Below, in pieces: positions 2,499 to 58,053 of a stretch of 64,000 bases of DNA. The notes under the pieces were generated by a model. That model did not search any database. It saw only the letters and a program-made list of their open reading frames with translations, and was not told the origin of the DNA. Where the stretch lies: the NCBI GenBank assembly GCA_020051955.1, contig JAGVQB010000045.1:1356-65355 (forward strand), written 5' to 3'. Source of the DNA: a bacterium (GTDB lineage: Bacteria > Patescibacteriota > Patescibacteriia > UBA9934 > GWF2-40-263). A program made the translations under genes and the position numbers. The stretch's first letter is position 1; the number at the start of each line of letters is the position of its first letter.

Positions 2499-5400
2499 AT
2501 GTTTAAACGCCAAGATTCACTTAAATCGACTGACTTTGACTCCATTCGCCTGCGCCTTGCCTCTCCAGAGGCGATGCGTTCATGGTCTTTTGGTGAGGTG
2601 AGCAAGCCCGAGACGATAAACTATCGTACGCAGAAGCCTGAAAAGCAGGGCTTGTTTGCCGAGGAAATTTTTGGACCATCCAAAGATTGGGAATGTTACT
2701 GCGGAAAATATAAGAAGATACGTTACAAAGGAATCATCTGTGATAAGTGTGGCGTGGAAGTAACCCAGGCGGTTGTGCGACGCGAACGCATGGGGCACAT
2801 CGAACTCGCGGCTCCGATTACGCACATTTGGTTTTTGCGCGGAGTGCCATCCAAGATTGGAACTATCCTCGACCTCTCAATTCAAAACTTGGAGAAGATT
2901 ATTTATTTCGCGAGCTTCCTCGTAACCGACGTTAACGAAGTCGCGAAGGAACAGACCGTGGAGCAGGTGAATGCCGAACGCAAGAGCAAAGAGAAAATGA
3001 TCGAAGGTGAGTTCAAGCGCGACACTGGGCGTCTGGAACAAAAGTTTGGTGAAGATAAGAAAGCGATTGAGAAAGAAACAAAACGTCTTGTGGAGATTCG
3101 CGACACTAAACTCGCGGAGCTTGAGGAAGATTTTGACTCGGTCATTGAAGATCTCAAAAGCATGAAGGTAATGTCAATCATTTCCGAGCAGACGTATCAC
3201 GAGTGGTCGCTCAAGTACGGTCATGTGTTTGAGGCGAATATTGGGGCAGAGGCGGTTAAGGAGATGCTTTTGCGTATCAATGTGGATGAGACCATGAAAG
3301 TTTTGGGAGAAGAATTAAAGGGCGCGACCAAGACAAAGCATAATCGAATCTTGCGCCGTCTAAAATTGTTGAAGTCTTTTTCAATCAACCAGATCAAACC
3401 GTCATGGATGGTATTGGACGTGTTGCCAGTGATACCTCCAGACCTGCGTCCAATGGTGCCGCTTGATGGTGGGCGATTTGCAACATCCGATCTTAACGAT
3501 TTGTATCGTCGTGTCATCAACCGCAATAACCGACTGAAGCGGTTGTTCGAGCTTAGCGCTCCTGAAGTAATTTCTCGCAACGAGAAGCGTATGTTGCAAG
3601 AAGCCGTTGACTCGCTCATTGATAACAGCGCGCGTCACAGCAAGACCGTTATCGCGGCAACTGGAAAGAAGCGCCAGTTGAAGAGTTTGGCCGACCAGCT
3701 CAAAGGAAAGCAGGGACGTTTCCGACAGAACTTGTTGGGTAAGCGCATTGACTACTCTGGTCGCTCCGTGATTGTTGTGGGTCCGCACCTTCATTTGGAT
3801 CAGTGCGGTATTCCAAAAAAGATGGCGTTGGAACTTTTCAAGCCGTTTGTTATTTCAAAATTGATCGCGCGCGAATATGTTCACAACATACGCAGCGCTA
3901 ATCGGTTCATCGAAAGCGATCGTCCAGAGACGTGGGATATTTTGGAAGAGGTTACAAGCGACGCGTTTGTCCTTCTCAACCGCGCTCCAACTCTGCACCG
4001 TCTGGGTATCCAGGCGTTCCGTCCTCTCCTTATCGAGGGCAAGGCCATTCAAGTTCACCCACTTGTGTGTGATGCTTACAACGCGGACTTTGATGGCGAC
4101 CAGATGGCAGTACACGTTCCACTAACAGAAGAAGCTCGCGCAGAGGCGCGCGAATTGATGCTCGCGACCAAGAACTTGCTCAAGCCTTCCTTTGGAGGGC
4201 CTGTCGCGACGCCTGGAAAAGATATTGCCTGGGGTATCTTCTATCTGACAATGGAACCAACACCTCAACCAGAAAAACGCGAGGAGCTTCCAATTTTTGC
4301 TTCAGAGACTGACGCGCTCTACGCGGTTCAAAATGAGCGACTCTTACTGCGCGATTGGATTTTGGTGCGGCTGAAGAACGGCGACATAATCGTGACAACT
4401 CCTGGCCGCGTTCTTGTCAACCAACAGTTCCCAAAGGAGGTTCCATTCATGAACCAGACAATGGGCAAGAAGGAGCTGTCGGCGATCGTGAAATATTATT
4501 TGGAGTTACACGGATCTGAAAAGACCGCGGAGTTTCTCGATCGTTTGAAAGAGATTGGGTTCAAATATTCCACTCGCGCGGGGTACTCTTGGGGGATGGC
4601 GAACCTGCCAGATATTCCAGCCAAGAAAGCGTTGATCGAAGAAGGCGACACGCGCGTACGCGAGGTTGAAGATTATTTTGCCCAAGGGCTTCTCACTGGT
4701 TCCGAGCGTCACTCGTCAATCATCAAAGTCTGGAACGAGATTAAGGATCGTATCGCGGCCGAAGCGAAGAAAGTGCTTCCAAAAGATAACCCCGCCTATA
4801 CAATGATTGAATCAGGCGCACGTGGTTCATGGGGTCAGATGACGCAGATGGTTGGTATGAAGGGGCTTGTGGCAAACCCATCAGGAGACATTATCGAACT
4901 ACCAGTCAAATCATCTTTCAAAGAGGGCTATGACGTGTTGGAGTTTTTTATCTCAAGCCATGGAGTGCGCAAAGGTTTGACTGACACTGCTCTGCGTACC
5001 GCGAACGCTGGTTACCTCACGCGCCGTTTGGTTGATGTTGCGCAGGACGTGATTGTACGTGAGGATGATTGCGGGGATGACAAGGGTGTGGTGCTGACGC
5101 GCAAGGAATCTGAGGAGATTGGCGAGCCGCTGAACATTCGTATCCTTGGTCGCTACACACTCTCTGACATAAAAAAGCCAGGCGGTCGCAAAGTTATCGT
5201 TAAGGCAGGCGAGATGATTACAGAGGAACACATTCGTGATATTGAAGCGGCTGGTGTTCCGCTTGAAGAGGTCCACGTGCGATCTGTTATGACCTGTCAC
5301 TTGCGTCGCGGAGTGTGTCAGAAATGTTACGGTTATGATCTCGCGTACAACAAGCTGGTGAAACTTGGAACCTCGGTGGGAATTATGGCGGCTCAATCAA

Positions 5401-6733: not shown

Positions 6734-7429
6734 TTATTTTTCGCTTTCTAACCAAGCTTTTAATAAAAAGATTGTCTCCGTTCGAAGCTTTGCTCGCGCC
6801 CAGTCTTTCCGCGGTTCGTTCAGCATCTCTCCGAGACCATCGAGGATGTGACGATTATCCATTTTTTCCAAAAGCTCTGTGCACTTAGCTAAAACTTCTT
6901 TAAACGGCATCTTTGCACGGCTCTCAACTAATTTTCTATTTATTGGCCAATTATTCTTCGCGAAAAAATACACATCGTAAACATCACGGCTCGTTTTTCC
7001 GATCCGCTCATACATCGCCATTAGTTTGTTGGCGAACATGTCCTCCTTGACCATTACTTGCATTGAGATACCAAGCAAAGTTTTTAATTCATACTTAGAA
7101 CCAAAATCCCTGCGGTTAACCTCAATCTTGATATTTTGAGATTTCAAATCGTATGAGATAACCGTGACGAGGTTGAATCGTTTGATTCTTGAATCAACAA
7201 CCTTGCCATAACTCATAGCTATTTTTTGTATTTTCTCAAATACTTCCTGCTTTTTATTTTCGTTTAAAAGGTCAAGATCGATACCAACTGAATTACGGGT
7301 CAAGTCATAAAACATTAAGGCGGCTGTGCCACCCTTAAACCCCAAATAGGGAGACAGCGAGGTATCAGAAAAAATATCTTTCAAGATTTGTAATAAGATA
7401 TTTTTGTGTTTCGGATAGTCTAATGTCAT
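6734..7429 (-). CDS. abiEii: nucleotidyltransferase AbiEii/AbiGii-family toxin (type IV TA system), 231 aa
   Basis: LGFKGGTAALMFYDLTRNSVGIDLDL matches the GGTAL...DLD nucleotidyltransferase signature of DUF1814/AbiEii. Size fits, and it sits directly downstream of an AbiEi-like gene. Local GC is about 32 %. Confidence 0.8.
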   Translation of the reverse strand: MTLDYPKHKNILLQILKDIFSDTSLSPYLGFKGGTAALMFYDLTRNSVGIDLDLLNENKKQEVFEKIQKIAMSYGKVVDSRIKRFNLVTVISYDLKSQNIKIEVNRRDFGSKYELKTLLGISMQVMVKEDMFANKLMAMYERIGKTSRDVYDVYFFAKNNWPINRKLVESRAKMPFKEVLAKCTELLEKMDNRHILDGLGEMLNEPRKDWARAKLRTETIFLLKAWLESEK

Positions 7430-7434
7430 ATGGT

Positions 7435-8031
7435 TTAATTATTGTCTTTGTAGTGTTTAAAATATTCTGCAACTTTTTTCCCCATCCTCTTATTGCGATA
7501 TATCGGCAAAATTTCAAAAACCTTGTCCCAATCCAAAACGTCCAAGTGATCGAAGTGATAATCCTTGCTGATATATATCCGATCCAAAAACGCTCGCTCT
7601 TTTGTCGCAGTAGAAATATCGTTTGTATGTTCAATCCCGATTGTATTGCTCAAAACATAATCTTTCATTCTTATAAAAGATATTTTTTGTCCGTCTGCTT
7701 CAATTTCCCTGGTAACATAAGAAGCAACAAAAATATTTTCATAGTACTGGAAGTTTATTCCTGTCCGAGTTAATACCGTTTCAAAACTGATGTATGAAGG
7801 CGTGTAGATTCGAGTAGCTAACTCAAAACGATCGTAGTTATTATCTTTGGCATAAATGCCACGATGGACTCTGATCAATTTTCCTCTTTTTACGTAATTG
7901 CTCAATCTCACCCGGACCTTTGCTTCTCCTTGTTCGCCCCACAACAAAGCAATGTCTTTGGTAGAAAAGACAGTTTTGGGAGATCTTAACAAGGATTCGA
8001 TGTATTGACCTTTTGTGGGTTTATTATCCAT
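7435..8031 (-). CDS. abiEi: AbiEi-family antitoxin / transcriptional regulator (198 aa)
   Basis: The C-terminal half (RVHRGIYAKDN...YTPSYISFETVLTRTGI) resembles the AbiEi antitoxin domain. There is a 5 nt gap to abiEii on the same strand, the canonical AbiEi-AbiEii operon order. Confidence 0.72.
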   Translation of the reverse strand: MDNKPTKGQYIESLLRSPKTVFSTKDIALLWGEQGEAKVRVRLSNYVKRGKLIRVHRGIYAKDNNYDRFELATRIYTPSYISFETVLTRTGINFQYYENIFVASYVTREIEADGQKISFIRMKDYVLSNTIGIEHTNDISTATKERAFLDRIYISKDYHFDHLDVLDWDKVFEILPIYRNKRMGKKVAEYFKHYKDNN

Positions 8032-20842: not shown

Positions 20843-20917
<75 letters not shown>

Positions 20918-20983
20918 AAACAACTTTCAGAATTGGCAATCTGCCTAAACAAATGTGGCCCACCACGTCGCTCGCGAGCGACG

Positions 20984-21060
20984 TGGTGGGCGTGGATGGA
21001 CTCGAACCATCGACCTCAACATTATCAGTGTTGCGCTCTAACCACCTGAGCTACACGCCC
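20984..21060 (-). tRNA. tRNA-Ile (anticodon GAT), 77 nt
   Basis: The reverse complement reads GGGCGTGTAGCTCAGGTGGTTAGAGCGCAACACTGATAATGTTGAGGTCGATGGTTCGAGTCCATCCACGCCCACCA. The 32 bp hairpin at 20959-20990 overlaps the CCA end and acts as a terminator. Confidence 0.85.
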
Positions 21061-22601: not shown

Positions 22602-24505
<1,904 letters not shown>

Positions 24506-33864: not shown

Positions 33865-34485
33865 ATGCAAAATATGTCGACAATTCGTTCAGAGTTTCCT
33901 CCAACAGATCAAGTGCTTGTCCCAATGGTTGTTGAAAAGACTCACATGGGCGAGCGCGCGTACGATATTTATTCACGACTGTTGAAAGATCGAATTATTT
34001 TTTTGGGAACAGCGATTGATGATAATGTCGCGAATCTTATCATCGCGCAGATGTTGTTTTTGGAGAGTCAGGACAAGACAAAAGAAATTAAACTCTACAT
34101 CAACTCACCAGGCGGAAGCGTGACAGCTGGGCTCGCGATTTACGACGCGATGCAATATGTGAAGCCAGACGTGTCAACGATTTGTGTTGGACTTGCCGCG
34201 TCAATGGGCGCGGTTCTACTTGCCGCTGGCGCAAAGGGAAAGAGATTCGTGCTTCCAAACTCCGAGATTATGATTCATCAAGTGCTTGGTGGCGTGCAGG
34301 GGCAGGCGACTGACATCAAGATTCACGCGGAGCGTATTCTCAAAATTAAAGACAGGCTGAACGACATTCTTTCAAAGCACACAGGCAGAAAAAAGTCGCT
34401 TGTGGAGGAGGATACCGAGCGCGATTACTTCCTTGATCCAGATGAAGCAGTGAAATATGGGCTGGTTGATAAGGTTATCTCATAG
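33865..34485 (+). CDS. clpP: ATP-dependent Clp protease proteolytic subunit
   Basis: [28 protein letters not shown], the [15 protein letters not shown] segment with the catalytic Ser, and MIHQVLGG. Confidence 0.95.
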
Positions 34486-43506: not shown

Positions 43507-45138
43507 CTAGTGTGCCGCCTTGCCCTTGGGGATCGCCTTGCGGATGAGCACGCACAGCACGAACCCTATCACTGCTGGCGGGATCATCCACAGCGGCCAA
43601 TCTGACCAGTTGTGCCAGTCAGCGGCCGCCGCCTCCCTGGGAAGCCTGGCACCGTACCAGAATGCCATGAGTGAACTTCCCAGGTACACGCATCCGTCGA
43701 TGATGCCCACTGCGATGCCCGCGTTCTTGGATCCGCCGAAGTCCTGCGTCGCTGTCCCAGAGAGCATTCCGTGCACGCCGATGACGCACAGGGACGCGAT
43801 CAGGCACAGCCACATCACAGCGGCGTTCCCAAGCACGAAGTACATCACGCACGCGCACGCGATCATGCCGCCGTAGAGTATGGCCGCGACCGGTCCGCGT
43901 CTTGATTCAAAGAACCTGTCACTGATGATGCCTGCGAACATGCCACCGAGGATTCCCGCCAGGCAAAGGAGCATACCCCAGTGAGGCTCGAGGTATGAGC
44001 CAACGTGGGTTGCCTTCATGAAGCTTGGTCCCCACTGCATGATCGCCTGCCTGACGAAGCCAGTGCAGAACTCGATCGCGGCTACCGCGACGATGATCGG
44101 GTTGCGCGCCATCATCAGGAAGACCTTGTGAGGCGGGTTTGTTGGTCCCTTCTCGCCAGATGTCGCATCTCCTGTGTCGAAGTCCTCGAGCCCAGCATCC
44201 TTGGGTGAGTTGCGGATGAGCTTGTGGCCAACCACGAAGCTCACGCACAGGATGGCTGCTGGGACAAAGAACACGAGGTGGACCTGGTGCTCCCAGATCT
44301 TGAGGAGTAGACCGTTCCAGTCATAGGCAAAGTAGAGTCCAAGCGAGATCAGGATCCCGAAGATGGCACCAAAGACTCCACGTTCCTTCACGTGGAACCA
44401 CGGCGAGTTCACCTTGACGATGGCGACAGCGCCGAAGCTCTGGAAGTACATATTGATCGCGTAAAGAACACAGAGGGCAGGCATGAGCTTGGAGGTGGCA
44501 CTCACATTGTGCTCGATACCGAAGAGCCCACGGAACCAGACGAAGCCGCTGAAGATCGGCTTGGCGAATTCATTCACCACGTTACCAAGCGCGCCGATTT
44601 CTCCGTTGCTTCTCACGACTTCCCACGCCACGACGCCCATCAGGACATTGGCGATGATGACCCCAGCGGCCGAGATCAGGATCGTCAGCCTTCCGCCGTA
44701 TCGGTCAGTGAGCGGACCATTGAGCAAGAACGACAGTCCATACACCAACGTGCCGATCCCGAAGATGATCCCGAAGTCAGCGTTGTCCATGAGACCGAAC
44801 TGGCTGAACTCCTTCTTGCTCACTGTCAGGTTGTAGCGCGCCATGTAGAGGAACGCGTAGATCGCTCCTAGTGGAACCCAGTTCATCACCCGTCTCTTGA
44901 TGAGGTCGGGCTTGAGATGGTCCATCGCGAGCTTGGGTTGACGCGCGAACACGAACACGATGACAACGAGCAGAAGCAGGATTGGGAGGAACTCCTTCAG
45001 GGAGATCAGGAACACGCTTTCCTTGCTTGTACCTGCCTCTTGCGCGGCAAGTGCGAGCGTTGGGAAGAGACTCATTGCCAGGGCAGAAAGAGCTACGAGA
45101 ATTTTGGACACCGGCGCCTCCTTGTGGGTTTTGCCCAC
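43507..45138 (-). CDS. MFS transporter, organophosphate:Pi antiporter (GlpT/UhpC)-like
   Basis: 543 aa with 12 TM helices. YMARYNLT...YGLSFLLNGPLTDRYGGR resembles the OPA-family N-terminal signature. GC is about 56 %. Confidence 0.7.
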   Translation of the reverse strand: MGKTHKEAPVSKILVALSALAMSLFPTLALAAQEAGTSKESVFLISLKEFLPILLLLVVIVFVFARQPKLAMDHLKPDLIKRRVMNWVPLGAIYAFLYMARYNLTVSKKEFSQFGLMDNADFGIIFGIGTLVYGLSFLLNGPLTDRYGGRLTILISAAGVIIANVLMGVVAWEVVRSNGEIGALGNVVNEFAKPIFSGFVWFRGLFGIEHNVSATSKLMPALCVLYAINMYFQSFGAVAIVKVNSPWFHVKERGVFGAIFGILISLGLYFAYDWNGLLLKIWEHQVHLVFFVPAAILCVSFVVGHKLIRNSPKDAGLEDFDTGDATSGEKGPTNPPHKVFLMMARNPIIVAVAAIEFCTGFVRQAIMQWGPSFMKATHVGSYLEPHWGMLLCLAGILGGMFAGIISDRFFESRRGPVAAILYGGMIACACVMYFVLGNAAVMWLCLIASLCVIGVHGMLSGTATQDFGGSKNAGIAVGIIDGCVYLGSSLMAFWYGARLPREAAAADWHNWSDWPLWMIPPAVIGFVLCVLIRKAIPKGKAAH

Positions 45139-49904: not shown

Positions 49905-50978
49905 ATGCAGACACACGATCAGCTTCCAACAAAAGAAGACCTCTTCCCATTATTAGAAAAACTGTTTGGTTTTTCATCGATTCAGGATTTGGTTCTAATC
50001 GTCGGTGGGCATTTGAGTAAGAATTTTTTGCTTTTGGTTGGCGGAGAAAAATATTTTCTTAAACAATACCGCTACAAGCTCAACCCCGTTATACATCAGA
50101 TTAAATTCGCGGAGACTTTTTATTCGTCAAAGGGGGTAAGGGTGATAATGCCATTGCGTGATAGGTTTGATCGCCCAGCTTTTTTCTTTAATGGAAATTG
50201 GTTTAGTCTGTTTCCTTTTATTGATAAAAAGGCAATTGAAATTTCACAGCTTACTGACGACGGGCTGATGACGCTTGCGAACCAATTAGGCGTCATGCAC
50301 ACGGCCGGGAAAGATGCTGGAAAGACGACGCAGTCTCTTTTGATGTGGGATAAAAATCGTTTTAACCTCGATGTATGTGAGCTTGAAATGAAACTTGAGA
50401 GTACGGACGTGCAAGAAACAACGAACATGTTGATAGCCAGCGTCCTAGAGCAAAAAAAGAAATTCGTTGAGAAAAATATTTTTGCCCTAGAGGATATCTC
50501 TCTTCCTTTTGACACATTGCTCCACGGAGATCTTAGTTACCAGAACGTATTTTTTTCACCTGATCAGAAACAGATCGATTATGTTTTTGATTTTGAAAAA
50601 ACCGCGCGCGGGCCTCGCGCGTTCGAACTCGCTCGCTCGATATGTATAAATGTATTTGATGATGGGTGGGATGATAAACGACTTGAAAAGGCCACCTTAT
50701 TTTTGCGAGCGTATCAAGAGGTGGCCCCGATTACCTACGAGGAATTTTTAATCGGGCTTCGGGCGTATCTGGTTCTTACTGCTCACCAGCTGTGGATTGA
50801 ATGGAAGATACTTTTTTGTGGTGAAACAAAATATATTCCTCTGTTACGTTCACATAGCATTAGGATCAACCATTTGGGGGATGGCATTGATACACTGGCG
50901 ACATCAATTTATGGGAGGCAAATAGGATCACATGAATTTCCACCCCCGTCACCCCTGCCACCTGTGTCACCCTTGTAA
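49905..50978 (+). CDS. aminoglycoside/choline-kinase-type phosphotransferase family protein (APH-like) with Pro-rich C-terminal repeat
   Basis: The Brenner motif LLHGDLSYQNVFF and a downstream DFE are typical of PF01636. The C-terminus PPPSPLPPVSPL is encoded by CACCC repeats. Confidence 0.75.
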   Translation: MQTHDQLPTKEDLFPLLEKLFGFSSIQDLVLIVGGHLSKNFLLLVGGEKYFLKQYRYKLNPVIHQIKFAETFYSSKGVRVIMPLRDRFDRPAFFFNGNWFSLFPFIDKKAIEISQLTDDGLMTLANQLGVMHTAGKDAGKTTQSLLMWDKNRFNLDVCELEMKLESTDVQETTNMLIASVLEQKKKFVEKNIFALEDISLPFDTLLHGDLSYQNVFFSPDQKQIDYVFDFEKTARGPRAFELARSICINVFDDGWDDKRLEKATLFLRAYQEVAPITYEEFLIGLRAYLVLTAHQLWIEWKILFCGETKYIPLLRSHSIRINHLGDGIDTLATSIYGRQIGSHEFPPPSPLPPVSPL

Positions 50979-51043
50979 CCCTTGTAGCTCTTGTCACCTT
51001 TGTTTTTCCCTCCCTCCTCACCACACACCATTGCCACATACCA

Positions 51044-51072
51044 CCAACGGTTGACAGGCCGTTGGTTTTTTT
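51044..51072 (+). terminator. rho-independent terminator of the APH-like gene
   Basis: CCAACGGTTGACAGGCCGTTGGTTTTTTT. Confidence 0.65.
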
Positions 51073-51142
51073 GTAGGGTTCGCGTGCGAAAGGCAAAACC
51101 ATTGCCAATCATTTGGAGGGGCATACAACCCAGGAGGAAGTC

Positions 51143-51862
51143 ATGGCAACCCCAGCCCGGTTCTACCGAACGCCACACGAGTTCACAATGGCGTTCATGG
51201 CCAATGTCGCAAAGACGTCGGCCACGGCAGTGACAGGGCAACAGAAGGGGCGCCATCGGCACCGTCCTGGGAAGCCCTACGCAGGAGTATCTGGTGATGA
51301 GCTCGCAGGGAAGGTGTTCGCGAACATGCGTTCTGTCGCACGCATGATTGCGACGGTTTCAGACCCAAACCGCCCACACACGGACTGGACAGTTCGGCAG
51401 TTCGTGGCACAGACAGTGCATCTCATACACAGGGGGATCAAGAACGCCAAGCGGATGAAGGCGCTGAGGACTCACCAAACAGCTCGTGGGTACGGTTGCT
51501 CTGCGGAGCGCGTACCAGAGTTGTGGGAGGAGTTCATTCGGGATCTGCAGATGAAGATGAAGCTGGACGAAGATGATCCGCAAGAGCTGTGCGCTTGGGT
51601 CGAATACCAAGTGCGCTTCAAGATCCATCCGTTGGCGGATGGGAGCGGAAGGTTGGCCACGGCGCTCGCGGCTTGGATCATGTTCCGGGCAGGGCGTGCG
51701 ATTCCCAACTACAGCTTCCTGCAGAGAAGCGAAATGCATGCCAAGCTCCGCGAGGGCGAAGTTGCGTTTCGTGAGTACTATCTGCGGGTGTGCTTTAGTG
51801 AGGGGGGTCCAAAGGAGCTGACCCCAACGGGAACAAACCCTCCTGACGAAGCAGCCGCCTGA
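51143..51862 (+). CDS. Fic/Doc-family protein (239 aa), GC-rich, stand-alone
   Basis: AGGAGG then ATG at 51143. IHPLADGSGRLATALAAWIM fits the Fic active-site motif HPFx(D/E)GNGR. GC is about 62 %. It has its own terminator at 51886-51930. Confidence 0.7.
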   Translation: MATPARFYRTPHEFTMAFMANVAKTSATAVTGQQKGRHRHRPGKPYAGVSGDELAGKVFANMRSVARMIATVSDPNRPHTDWTVRQFVAQTVHLIHRGIKNAKRMKALRTHQTARGYGCSAERVPELWEEFIRDLQMKMKLDEDDPQELCAWVEYQVRFKIHPLADGSGRLATALAAWIMFRAGRAIPNYSFLQRSEMHAKLREGEVAFREYYLRVCFSEGGPKELTPTGTNPPDEAAA

Positions 51863-51948
51863 GGGCGAGCTGCTGGTACGACGCCGGACTGACTTACGAG
51901 CCAGTCCGTTTTCTTTTTCCGATTTTTTTTGTAGGATGTCTGTCACAT

Positions 51949-53019
51949 ATGCGTGTCCTTGGAATCGAAACAAGTTGTGATGAAACAGCGGCGGCGATTG
52001 TGTCTGAGTATGACGGTAGTTTTGTGATTGAAAAAAGCGTGCTGGCATCGCAGGCGAAGATTCACGCGCAATACGGCGGAGTAGTGCCAGAGGTTGCCGC
52101 GCGTGAGCATGCCGCGTTTTTGTTTCCGCTGTTGGAAGAGCTTGGTGTGCCGCGAGACGGCGCGGGGATTGACGCGCTCGCCGTGACTTATGGTCCTGGG
52201 CTTGTGCCTGCGTTGCGGGTGGGGGTGGAGGCGGCCAAGGCACTCGCGTGGTGCTGGGGCAAACCGTTGGTGGCAGTGAATCATTTGGAGGGGCACATAT
52301 ATAGCGTGTGGTTGGATGGGGAAGGAAAGATCCAAAATCCAGGAACCAAAATCCAAACAACGCAAAGTAACTCAGTTGAGTTTCCAGCAGTATGCCTGCT
52401 TGTGTCAGGTGGGCATACCGAGCTTGTTCTCATGCGAGATCATGGTGAGTACGAGTTGCTGGGAATGACGCGAGATGACGCGGCTGGGGAGGCGTTTGAT
52501 AAAGTCGCAAAGTTGTTGGGACTGCCGTACCCAGGTGGTCCAGAGATTTCGAAAGTGGCGCTTAATGGGAACCCACGCGCGGTTAATTTTCCAAGGCCGA
52601 TGATTGAGTCCGGGGATTTGGATTTTAGTTTTGCTGGATTGAAGACGGCGGTGAGGGTTTTTGTCGAAGGTGGGGAGGTGGGGAGGTGGGGAGGTGATTT
52701 AGATATTGCGGATATTGCCGCGAGTTTTCAGCAGGCTGTGGTTGACGTGCTTGTCTCAAAGACCTTACAGGCGGTCAAGAAAGTCGTGCCGCGCAGTGTG
52801 ATTTTGTCGGGCGGTGTGTCTGCGAACAAGTTACTTAAAGAAATACTTGAGAGCGAATTGCGTCGCGTTGCCCCAGAGATTCCATTTTATGTCCCAGAGC
52901 TTTCTCTTACTGGCGACAACGCCGCTATGATCGCGGCCGCGGGTATCATGCGCGCCAAGCGCGGGGCGTTTGCTGACCCTCTCACACTGGTCGCGGATCC
53001 GAACGCGAAATTAAACTAG
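51949..53019 (+). CDS. tsaD: tRNA N6-adenosine threonylcarbamoyltransferase (Kae1/TsaD), with two low-complexity inserts
   Basis: MRVLGIETSCDETAAAIV and the HLEGH metal-binding site. Inserts KIQNPGTKIQTTQS and EGGEVGRWGGDLDI are present. Confidence 0.92.
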   Translation: MRVLGIETSCDETAAAIVSEYDGSFVIEKSVLASQAKIHAQYGGVVPEVAAREHAAFLFPLLEELGVPRDGAGIDALAVTYGPGLVPALRVGVEAAKALAWCWGKPLVAVNHLEGHIYSVWLDGEGKIQNPGTKIQTTQSNSVEFPAVCLLVSGGHTELVLMRDHGEYELLGMTRDDAAGEAFDKVAKLLGLPYPGGPEISKVALNGNPRAVNFPRPMIESGDLDFSFAGLKTAVRVFVEGGEVGRWGGDLDIADIAASFQQAVVDVLVSKTLQAVKKVVPRSVILSGGVSANKLLKEILESELRRVAPEIPFYVPELSLTGDNAAMIAAAGIMRAKRGAFADPLTLVADPNAKLN

Positions 53020-53043: not shown

Positions 53044-53493
53044 ATGACCCATGTAATCCGCACTGAACAAGAAACTAAAAAACTCGCCGGAGAGTTTGCG
53101 CAAAAGTTGCGCGGCGGCGAAGTTGTTTTTTTGAATGGAGATTTGGGGAGTGGAAAGACGACGTTTGTGCGTGGCGTCGCGCAGTCGCTGGGTTTCCACG
53201 AGCCTGTTCGTAGCCCGTCTTTCACGCTTGTTAACCGTTACAAGGTTTCAAGTGGGGGAATCAACGAGATTGTTCACGTTGATCTTTACCGTTTGAAGAC
53301 ACCGGATGAACTTCGCGCGCTTGCGCTTGATGAAGAGATTGGAAGAAATGATGCCATTGTTTTTGTTGAGTGGCCACAAAACGCTCAAGGGCTTTTGGGT
53401 GAGTCAACTTATTCAATCGACTTTGTTATCAATGGGGATTCACGGGCGATCACTATTCGCCAACAGTCCTTAACACCTCATCAACCGATGTAA
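53044..53493 (+). CDS. tsaE: tRNA threonylcarbamoyladenosine biosynthesis ATPase TsaE (YjeE)
   Basis: P-loop GDLGSGKTTFVRG with the TsaE-typical length and order after tsaD. Its 3' end overlaps the convergent pilB-like gene by 41 nt. Confidence 0.85.
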   Translation: MTHVIRTEQETKKLAGEFAQKLRGGEVVFLNGDLGSGKTTFVRGVAQSLGFHEPVRSPSFTLVNRYKVSSGGINEIVHVDLYRLKTPDELRALALDEEIGRNDAIVFVEWPQNAQGLLGESTYSIDFVINGDSRAITIRQQSLTPHQPM

Positions 53494-56244: not shown

Positions 56245-58053
56245 TCAGACGAACAGTGCTTCGAACGCTTCCTTCTCCAGCGTTTCTTTTTCCAGAAGCG
56301 CGTTCGCGATTTTATCGAGCTGTGCTTTTTCTTTTTTCAGTATAGCACGCGCGGTTTCAATGGCGCCATCCACGAGCAGTTTCACTTCTTGATCTATCGC
56401 CTCCGCGGTTTTCTCCGAGTAGTTGCGTTGGTCGTGAATTTCTTTTCCCAAGAATACCAGTTCCTGCGACTCTCCGAACACTCGCGGTCCCAGCCCTTCG
56501 CTCATCCCATAGCGTGTGACGAGTTCACGAGCAAGGCGCGTGCACTTGCGCAGATCATCGGAAGCCCCAGTTGTCACATCGCCGAAAGTTTCTTTCTCGC
56601 AAATGAACCCACCAAGCAGAACCGCCATGTCGTCCAAAAATTCCGCGCGTCTGTGCAATCGGCGATCTTCCATTGGCAACTTGAGCGTGTAGCCAGCGGC
56701 TGAGCCGCGCGAAATGATCGAAACTTTATGGACAGGATCTGCGTTTGGGAGACTGTGCGCGACAAGCGCGTGGCCAGCTTCGTGATAGGCAGTGATTTTT
56801 TTCTCCTCTTTGTTCATTAGGAAACTTTTTCGCTCTGGTCCCAACAAAACTTTCTCGATCGAATCAAGCGTGTCTTCCTGGCTGACGGTCGTATCGTTGC
56901 GCCTGGCCGCGCGGATCGCCGCTTCATTCAACAGGTTCATAAGATCAGCGCCAGAAAATCCAGGGGTGCGCTCCGCGACTCGACGCAAGTTTACGTCAGG
57001 CGCGAGTGGTTTATTTTTGGCATGGATTTGGAGGATGGCTTCGCGGTCATTGATGTCTGGTAGATCCAAAATAACACGTCTGTCAAAACGTCCTGGGCGC
57101 AACAGCGCTGGGTCCAACACGTCTGGTCGGTTTGTCGCCGCCATCACGATCACTCCAATGTTTGGATCAAACCCATCCATCTCCACGAGGATTTGGTTTA
57201 GGGTCTGCTCGCGCTCGTCGTGGCTTCCTCCAAGTCCCGCGCCACGATGACGTCCCACTGCGTCAATCTCATCGATGAAGACAATGCACGGCGCGGCTTT
57301 CTTCGCGCGTCCAAACAAGTCGCGCACGCGCGAGGCGCCAACGCCCACGAACATTTCTACAAACTCCGAGCCGCTCAAATGAAAGAATGGAACGCCAGCC
57401 TCTCCAGCGACAGCTCGCGCAAGCAACGTCTTACCAGTTCCAGGGGCACCCATGAGTAGCACGCCCTTTGGAAGTTTCGCGCCGAGGTCAGCGAATTTTT
57501 TTGGGCTCTTCAAAAATTCTACGACCTCTTGCAGTTCATCCTTTGCTTCCTTCGCGCCTGCCACATCCAGGAATGTAACTTTTTGTTTGATGTCTTTCAT
57601 CTCGCGCGCGCCTGACATTCCAAACGATAACGCTCGATTGTTAGCGCCCTGCATTTGTCGGATCATGAACCAAAAAACAATGATGAGCAGAATGAGCGGA
57701 AGCAACGAGGGTAGTATGACACCCATGATGTATGAACGCGTTGTGCGATCGCTAACAGAGATGTTGGCGGTTTTCAATTGCTCGGGAGTCACGCCGTAGT
57801 CGACAAGCACCTCGGAAAGAGAGTTTGAAGATTCCTTGCGGGTCACTTGTTGCGCCCCGTCCTTCAGGGTGACTTTTACGTCAGTTCCTTCAATGGTCAA
57901 ACTCTCCACGACGCCGTTTTGTATCTCTTCCACAACTGTTGCCATGCTGACATCCACGGGCTTATCACCACTCAATGAGTAGCTTGAAAAAATGGCAGAG
58001 AGAATTACGAGCGTGACGAGCGCTATGATAATGTTTTTTGAGAGAGGCTTCAT
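56245..58053 (-). CDS. ftsH: ATP-dependent zinc metalloprotease FtsH
   Basis: AAA Walker [24 protein letters not shown], the SRF region, and the zinc site HEAGHALV. Confidence 0.95.

Follow-up and report, generated by a model that had tools for sequence, protein, structure and literature searches.

Fic enzymes are usually sorted by the way in which an inhibitory glutamate gates ATP binding via the second arginine of the active-site motif. The glutamate belongs to an (S/T)xxxE(G/N) motif, which is carried by an adjacent small antitoxin gene in class I (FicTA), by an N-terminal helix of the same chain in class II, and by a C-terminal helix in class III. In the class II protein FICD, the second motif Arg (R374) binds the γ-phosphate and ribose of ATP and is the salt-bridge partner of the inhibitory Glu (PMC8097203, PMC8401265). 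Bona fide AMP transferases are recognized by four residues of the motif, H, G2, R1, and R2 (PMC8401265, PMC8097203).

Here, we discuss a gene family that has dropped both the gating Glu and the second Arg. The gene lies in a 64,000-nucleotide stretch of contig JAGVQB010000045.1 from a bacterium of the Patescibacteriota (this whole stretch is referred to as the window). Based on Pfam, alignments, and a structural model, positions 51143..51862 of the + strand constitute the coding sequence of a divergent Fic-fold protein (239 aa plus stop), located just upstream of tsaD. An earlier reading made from the sequence alone (the sequence-only reading) took it for a horizontally acquired, toxin- or effector-like Fic protein. 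Our comparisons of sequences and loci point to a different assignment: the gene probably encodes a vertically inherited, lineage-restricted, and active but noncanonical Fic phosphotransferase of Candidatus Uhrbacteria that operates without a Glu/Arg2 gate. The family would thus represent an enzyme that is presumably controlled, and probably also supplied with substrate, in a different way.

A divergent Fic fold with an altered active-site loop

The sequence-only reading recognized a stand-alone Fic-domain protein, and the profile and structural comparisons bear this out. The Pfam profile PF02661 matches at 24.8 bits, just over the gathering score of 24.0 (E 3.9e-5), and a precomputed PF02661 match exists for only one of 26 close homologues. 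These homologues were recovered by a word-indexed search (38-70 % identity), all those with a taxon name belong to Candidatus Uhrbacteria or Patescibacteria, and together with the window protein they make up alignment A1 (27 sequences). FICD homologues are found in the PDB by phmmer at E 0.007, while the 27-sequence family profile reaches FICD at E 2e-5. Alignment of the family to FICD with hhalign, for which we used an FICD sequence 100 % identical to 6i7g_A, gives a probability of 94.7 %, with a local alignment over residues 107-203 only. An AlphaFold2 model based on the family alignment (pLDDT 86.8, pTM 0.86) shows the helical core, the catalytic loop before helix α5, and the flap that define the Fic fold. 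The top 25 Foldseek matches of this model are all FICD or BT_2513 (TM ~0.6), and class II Fic structures align over 190-200 residues compared to 139-164 for classes I and III. In the model, the architecture is class-II-like, with a helical N-terminal extension packed on the core. Scans with PHROGs and PADLOC gave weak generic Fic similarity only (SoFic, PDC-S04). Pfam matches to Ku_PK_bind and Lsm_C were below the cut-offs and were disregarded.

The active-site loop HPLADGSGRLAT (residues 162-173; 51626..51661, + strand), as delimited by alignment A1, the FICD alignments, and a motif census, reads H162-P-L-A-D166-G-S168-G-R170-L-A-T173, and it forms the first part of HPLADGSGRLATALAAW (residues 162-178, nt 51626-51676). 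The fit to HPFx(D/E)GNGRxxR that was claimed earlier holds for the His, the Asp, both Gly residues, and the first Arg, but three of the nine specified positions deviate (F to L, N to S, and the second R to T). This pattern is a property of the family. In A1, D166, G167, G169, and R170 are invariant, and H162 and P163 are kept except in P0026 (194 aa), which is gapped there. The position of the motif Asn is Ser, Cys, or Thr, with Asn in only three rows (P0013, P0026, and P0033), and the second-Arg position is Thr in nearly all sequences (Thr173 in the window protein). In a wider set of 21 sequences, H162, G169, and R170 are still invariant, as they are in stand-alone relatives at 24-30 % identity, of which at least 90 % have Asp166 and Gly167. 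The window protein does not carry the complete canonical motif of AMP-transferring Fic proteins, i.e., with both the Asn and the second Arg. Because the Asn and the γ-phosphate-binding second Arg are replaced across the family, AMPylation is not secured, and judged by the motif it is doubtful for the window protein.

In addition to the loop, the target-docking hairpin, or flap, can be traced. The segment ALRTHQTARGYGCS (residues 107-120; 51461..51502, + strand) is set by hhalign on the FICD segment RFRTTQVLVGHH, which we take to be the FICD flap. The flap of FICD corresponds to its residues 311-324 (PMC8097203). In A1, R109 and H111 of the flap are invariant, and T113, Y117, G118, and C119 are near-invariant. 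Since the catalytic core and the flap were kept while the family diverged to ~31 % identity, catalytic activity of the protein is most likely.

By analogy, however, the lack of Arg2 and Asn may also point to a noncatalytic binder, as BepC is reported to be (PMC8097203), and this counts against the reading of the protein as an enzyme. A catalytically inert Fic-fold scaffold, i.e., a pseudoenzyme such as BepC or AvrB, appears unlikely to us given that the close family shows no variation at His162, Asp166, Gly167, Gly169, and Arg170. The core residues are still kept in the stand-alone relatives at 24-30 % identity, the flap is conserved, and the remote relatives that are parts of fusion proteins (see below) still have a basic side chain (R or K) where the window protein has Arg170. 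Such conservation is typically seen when an active site is under selection. For an active enzyme, we suggest that a nucleotide-type donor would supply a phosphoryl-linked group and that the enzyme would attach it to a hydroxyl side chain on a target protein presented by the flap. In this scenario, the distal-phosphate site would either be altered, such that the donor is something other than ATP in its standard pose, or be supplied in trans, and no Glu/Arg2 gate would operate.

Inhibitory elements and expression signals

The motif (S/T)xxxE(G/N) was found neither in the Fic protein nor in any of the six frames of 50500-52400, and a scan of the family members returned two chance matches only, both at nonconserved positions. 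Moreover, no small ORF (open reading frame) flanks the Fic gene, its neighbors being an APH-like gene and tsaD. The sequence-only reading had noted neither an inhibitory motif nor an adjacent antitoxin, and on both points it stands. Compared with the three classes, the locus has no adjacent small antitoxin gene with the motif as in class I, and the C-terminus is a low-confidence Pro/Ala-rich tail rather than a class III (S/T)xxxE(G/N) helix. With respect to class II, the N-terminal helices are present while the motif is absent.

These helices are part of a conserved N-terminal segment, FTMAFMANVAKTSATAVTGQQ...RPGKP (residues 14-45; 51182..51277, + strand), which was defined from A1 and the model. 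Residues S26, T28, G32, R41, G43, and K44 are invariant in A1, and the helices in the model comprise residues 11-25 and 27-31. As modeled, the segment is located at the place of the class II inhibitory helix and the "PGK" loop that follows it. Forced and global alignments, at a confidence close to zero, pair TMAFMAN with TVAIEGN and RPGK with VPGK, while a spacing argument favors the other register, T28xxxG32. Neither register, with Met19 or Gly32 at the Glu position, puts an acidic residue there. Another candidate for an inhibitory helix, AKLREG (residues 200-205), was rejected: it has no S/T and up to Arg203 it aligns to a core helix of FICD, and only by extension, in a low-confidence global alignment, would its REG face the NEG of FICD. 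As judged from the alignments, both halves of the Glu-Arg2 gate are missing in the family.

The gene itself is a single + strand ORF with an ATG at 51143 and a stop at 51860-51862. An in-frame TTG at 51113, likewise reported by the ORF finder, was dismissed as a start since the N-termini of the orthologues (MA/MS...) align at the equivalent of ATG 51143. A Shine-Dalgarno sequence of its own, AGGAGG (51132..51137, + strand), is readily read 5 nt ahead of the ATG, in keeping with the earlier description. The only 100 %-identical database entry, P0027 (113 aa), is a partial call that covers residues 127-239 on a 71-kb JGI contig and is annotated "fido (protein-threonine AMPylation protein)"; here, the annotation apparently failed to call the gene at full length. 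In the window, the leader of the Fic gene also carries an ectopic, window-specific fragment derived from tsaD (51081..51123, + strand), which was detected in a repeat search. A perfect 17-nt direct repeat, AATCATTTGGAGGGGCA, is present at 51107-51123, 20 nt ahead of the Fic ATG, and at 52279-52295 in tsaD, where it coincides with the part that codes for the metal-binding motif NHLEGH; around it, imperfect homology reaches ~50 nt (51081-51123 vs. 52245-52295). The chance expectation for such a leader/tsaD repeat is 0.02 matches. The fragment was not found in any of 99 related loci, nor in the Fic leaders of other carriers.

Upstream, the APH-like kinase gene (49905..50978, + strand; Pfam APH, E 1.9e-10), which is mentioned for context only, ends in an intrinsic terminator (51043..51073, + strand) identified by a terminator scan and RNA folding, with a hairpin at 51043-51066 that consists of a 10-bp stem and is followed by T7. 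This terminator is predicted to part the Fic gene from the upstream transcript. The APH-like gene is the upstream neighbor in most but not all Fic carriers, and a two-gene APH-Fic module was rejected because of the terminator between the two genes and because the APH-like gene is missing in the loci L007, L010, and L019. Downstream of the Fic stop, RNA folding gives a terminator-like hairpin (51885-51908) with a U-rich tract (together 51885..51930, + strand). Its folding energy is no better than that of shuffled sequences, so that the element is weak when taken alone, and a simple terminator scan missed it because the loop is too long. However, a hairpin and U-tract with unrelated stems occupy the same position in five of six orthologous loci that were folded (L001, L005, L006, L008, and L010), while none was found 3′ of the Fic gene in the basal locus L007. 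This positional conservation makes a private Fic terminator, as claimed in the sequence-only reading, credible. The gaps on the two sides of the Fic gene, 164 nt upstream and 86 nt downstream, are both filled by terminators.

At the other end of the protein, a low-confidence C-terminal tail (51797..51859, + strand; delimited by model pLDDT and A1) ends in Ala-Ala-Ala. The mean pLDDT of the tail is 50 at residues 221-230 and below 50 at residues 229-239. Nevertheless, the terminal tripeptide is kept as [AV]-[AV]-[AS] in 20-25 of the 27 A1 sequences, depending on the position (the last residue is A or S in 22 and the penultimate A or V in 25), and this ending is also seen in several more remote stand-alone relatives. 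The Ala-rich tail presumably resembles ssrA-type degrons. The window also encodes ClpP (33865-34485) and FtsH (56245-58053). No tmRNA gene, the tag of which could be compared with the Fic tail, was found in the window or related loci. In our model, Fic activity would be limited by means other than the Glu/Arg2 gate. These would comprise expression from a monocistronic unit bracketed by terminators, codons rich in G and C at the third position (GC3) that are atypical of the genome, and possibly turnover through the conserved ssrA-like tail.

Synteny, descent, and alternative origins

In an exhaustive search of 1.84 billion representatives, the number of clusters was only 8 below E 1e-30, 27 below E 1e-10, and 219 below E 1e-3. 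Homologues of the Fic protein number about 30, and the genomes that carry them are all Uhrbacteria-like. The Fic gene is carried by only five GTDB species representatives and is restricted to one small group of groundwater Uhrbacteria. As an aside, L014 and L016 are GTDB representative metagenome-assembled genomes with the Uhrbacteria-type block that have ENA third-party annotation titles reading "uncultured Gammaproteobacteria", probably a mislabel.

In every locus recovered, down to 38 % identity, the Fic gene is positioned immediately upstream of tsaD-tsaE. In the window, these invariant neighbors are tsaD (51949..53019, + strand; Pfam TsaD E 1e-82 and synteny) and tsaE (53044..53493, + strand), for which TsaE PF02367 is precomputed for the orthologues in every carrier locus; the window tsaE ORF is 43-62 % identical to these orthologues (tblastn). 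The longer loci of the crown clade have the block order BipA ... APH - Fic - TsaD - TsaE ... PilB-like ATPase - orf327 - FtsH. In L007 and L019 (38-39 % identity) as well as L010, the upstream gene is different and tsaD-tsaE is retained. A scan of metagenomes with TsaD identified two loci, L020 and L047, with TsaD 64-65 % identical and the same downstream synteny, that have no Fic gene. Here, the slot upstream of tsaD is occupied by a glycerol-3-phosphate dehydrogenase gene in L020 and a Pol-beta/NTP_transf_2 nucleotidyltransferase gene in L047, and the position appears to be a variable accessory-gene site. The L047 nucleotidyltransferase gene (3913-4944, +) lies beside a tRNA-Glu gene (3655-3729, -). 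Scanning 80 loci with the family hidden Markov model revealed no hidden Fic homologue.

In a neighbor-joining tree of TsaD, the Fic carriers group together in one clade, inside which L020 and L047 are nested and L007/L019 are basal. This topology suggests one gain of the Fic gene followed by loss or replacement, and since the nested relatives L020 and L047 are without the gene, it is an accessory rather than a housekeeping gene. Pairwise Fic and TsaD identities are strongly correlated (Spearman 0.90; Mantel r 0.90, p 2e-4), with Fic as the faster-evolving protein (mean identity 46 % vs. 67 % for TsaD). Moreover, no Fic relatives were found in the IMG/VR, GenBank phage, or PLSDB plasmid collections (IMG/VR scan, tblastn of phages and plasmids), and no mobile-element repeats or mobility genes flank the gene. 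The locus does not display the features of a recent genomic island, i.e., a variable site, mobility genes or repeats, incongruence, and an unshared composition anomaly. The sequence-only reading had itself regarded orthologues that are syntenic in all relatives as the mark of a vertically inherited Fic gene. All carriers are indeed syntenic upstream of tsaD, while L020 and L047 lack the gene; by that rule, the syntenic orthologues argue for vertical inheritance. We suggest a single gain of the gene, at the site directly upstream of tsaD-tsaE, in an ancestor of this Uhrbacteria subclade, after which it would have been passed on by vertical descent with occasional loss.

The sequence-only reading also pointed to the base composition, with ~62 % GC claimed for the gene against ~45 % for its neighbors. 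These figures were overstated: the Fic gene has 58.9 % GC (58.2 % over 51143-51930; GC1 61, GC2 48, GC3 67), while the APH-like gene has 42.1 %, tsaD 54.3 %, and the window 49.2 %. Relative to the mean over the genes of the window (49.2 %, sd 4.6), the Fic gene ranks top among the genes measured, but by a small margin, as the ORF at 43507-45138 nearly matches it (58.3 %). Orthologues of the Fic gene are likewise rich in GC and GC3 compared to their own neighbors in L001, L005, L006, L008, and L010, whereas those in the basal L007/L019 are not elevated. Since the crown-clade orthologues examined share the elevation, it belongs to the gene itself and does not signal a fresh import. This pattern across orthologues suggests that the GC3 anomaly, instead of being a relic, is kept up actively, either through a biased process or through selection acting on codons or mRNA. 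Thus, that a Fic gene is GC-rich and has no antitoxin is, on those grounds alone, no evidence of horizontal transfer. In the same five loci (L001, L005, L006, L008, and L010), GC3 of the Fic orthologue is 13-27 points above that of the adjacent tsaD, even though the Fic proteins share only ~46 % of their amino acids on average.

The remote relatives shed a different light on the origin of the family. These sequences (E 1e-15 to 1e-6, P0035-P0172) share a distinctive loop, H[PF]FxDG[CV]G[KR]xxK, and many are domains within proteins of 400-4,600 aa, the largest having 4,677 aa. In a Pfam scan of nine of them, five gave Zeta_toxin/AAA_33, two RelA/SpoT-type HD_4, one Mu-portal, and one a WXG100-like N-terminus, while Pfam Fic was detected in only one. 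Stand-alone relatives in Bdellovibrionota and on an unannotated contig are not beside tsaD. The Fic-like clade with the DG[CV]G[KR]xxK loop is large, largely unannotated, and mostly missed by PF02661, and it serves as cargo in toxin and phage-portal fusions. The fusions are similar to Tox-Doc, a described class of polymorphic-toxin cargo (PMC3482391). A toxin-like ancestry is therefore plausible at the depth of these relatives, and the ancestral source would be a Fic clade the other members of which are cargo domains of toxin-type and phage-portal fusions. The Uhrbacteria clade, as the alignments and loci suggest, swapped the Lys/Arg at the R2 position for Thr and settled at a fixed chromosomal site. 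The earlier toxin- or effector-like label suits the remote relatives in toxin-type fusions; the window protein has no signal peptide or delivery domain.

Collectively, these data bear on the proposal of a recently acquired toxin- or effector-like AMPylating Fic protein that is constitutively active for want of an inhibitor. The proposal would account for the highest GC among the window genes measured (58.9 % vs. 58.3 % for the ORF at 43507-45138), the lack of an inhibitory motif or antitoxin at the locus, the missing gene in two close relatives, and the remote relatives as zeta-toxin, WXG100, and Mu-portal fusion domains. It is at odds with the fixed position and syntenic neighborhood in all carriers, the codivergence with TsaD, and the GC/GC3 elevation common to the crown-clade orthologues examined. 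It is also difficult to reconcile with the lack of phage, plasmid, and viral relatives and of mobility genes or flanking repeats, with a protein that has no signal peptide or delivery domain, and with the absence of Arg2 and Asn, both of which a bona fide AMP transferase needs. We consider this proposal decidedly unlikely. Recent transfer is largely refuted, and horizontal acquisition as claimed in the sequence-only reading is not supported, given the fixed site, the codivergence with TsaD, and the lack of mobile relatives.

The invariant position next to tsaD-tsaE raises the question of whether the Fic protein is functionally coupled to the t6A (threonylcarbamoyladenosine) machinery, either by modifying TsaD/TsaE or by using or sensing threonylcarbamoyl-AMP. 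The Fic-tsaD-tsaE adjacency is the sole invariant feature of the neighborhood, even in L007, L010, and L019. In the basal loci L007 and L019, 37 nt separate the Fic gene from tsaD, and with no hairpin in L007, the one that was folded, cotranscription would be permitted. In addition, loss of the γ-phosphate-binding Arg would suit a donor with fewer phosphates, and tsaB was not detected in either the 64-kb window or the carrier loci. Yet absence from such short loci is uninformative for the rest of the genome, a terminator-like hairpin lies between Fic and tsaD in most carriers, and in the nested relatives tsaD-tsaE is present although the Fic gene is not. Since synteny extends over the whole BipA...FtsH block, the adjacency may just reflect shared ancestry in a narrow clade. 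Moreover, relatives outside the clade are not beside tsaD, and Asp166 and Arg170, which handle the α/β phosphates, are retained. Such coupling is in our opinion very improbable. Least probable of all would be a dedicated accessory of the t6A pathway in the Uhrbacteria subclade that uses or polices threonylcarbamoyl-AMP or covalently regulates TsaD/TsaE, which in its extreme form would make up for the absence of TsaB; neither the 64-kb window nor any carrier locus showed a second TsaD/TsaB-like ORF. If true, this role would explain both the invariant downstream tsaD-tsaE and the loss of the γ-phosphate-binding Arg and the gating Glu.

We therefore return to the vertically inherited, probably active phosphotransferase. 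Apart from the loss of Arg2 and Asn discussed above, several points weigh against it. The PF02661 match is marginal and a search of the Fic protein against NCBIfam gave no match. The mapping of the N-terminal segment to the inhibitory helix is without statistical support and allows the two registers with Met19 or Gly32 at the Glu position. The TsaD tree is a neighbor-joining tree without bootstrap support, and the case for a degron consists solely of the conserved terminal tripeptide. Finally, we infer the activity of the Fic protein, its donor, and its target alike.

Other features of the window are of interest in their own right. The 16S rRNA gene (22602-24505, -) has 1,904 nt compared to the 1,533 positions of the Rfam model, which corresponds to ~370 nt of insertions; 16S rRNA insertions are often seen in bacteria of the candidate phyla radiation (CPR). 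The genes for tRNA-Ile and tRNA-Phe are present at 20843-21060 on the same strand, and no 23S rRNA gene was detected in the window. The ORF at 43507-45138 (-; 543 aa, 58.3 % GC) is with 77 % GC3 the strongest GC3 outlier of the window. An AbiEii toxin/AbiEi antitoxin pair (type IV toxin-antitoxin/abortive infection; 6734-7429 and 7435-8031, -) has 38 % and 36 % GC compared to 49 % for the window. From its composition, this pair qualifies more than the Fic gene does as a candidate island acquired by horizontal transfer.

Comparison with known Fic systems

Searches of the literature for Fic with TsaD, Fic in CPR bacteria, and TsaB in Patescibacteria gave nothing relevant. For CPR biology, the gene is among the few enzyme-like, lineage-specific genes that are fixed beside an essential tRNA-modification operon.

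Among the described systems, FICD/HYPE and the class II Fic proteins (BT_2513 [3cuc], SoFic, and CdFic) share the architecture, but the window protein is only 16-19 % identical to them. It differs by having no (S/T)xxxE(G/N), by Thr in place of the second Arg (R374 in FICD) and Ser in place of the Asn, and by the lack of a tetratricopeptide repeat, winged helix-turn-helix, or other accessory domain. Because the gate residues are missing, Glu-dependent autoinhibition and deAMPylation of the type seen in FICD cannot operate in the window protein. The class I FicTA systems (VbhT/VbhA and EcFicT/FicA) are, like the window protein, small bacterial Fic proteins, the activity of which needs restraint.

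With the Tox-Doc/MuF/portal fusions, the window protein shares a homologous domain, the loop of which keeps Lys where the window protein has Thr. Polymorphic-toxin Tox-Doc cargo is part of a large trafficking or repeat protein with an immunity gene. In contrast, the window protein is a 239-aa, single-domain, cytoplasmic-type protein without a trafficking domain, repeats, or an immunity gene, and its gene has a conserved chromosomal position. Finally, the kinase Doc and the phosphocholine transferase AnkX resemble the window protein in that a Fic fold is combined with a deviant signature motif, although the window protein does not have the Doc motif itself, HxFx(D/N)(A/G)NKR, with Lys at the second Gly position. 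In Doc and AnkX, the changes in the motif accompany another donor pose or another transferred group (PMC8401265, PMC8097203).

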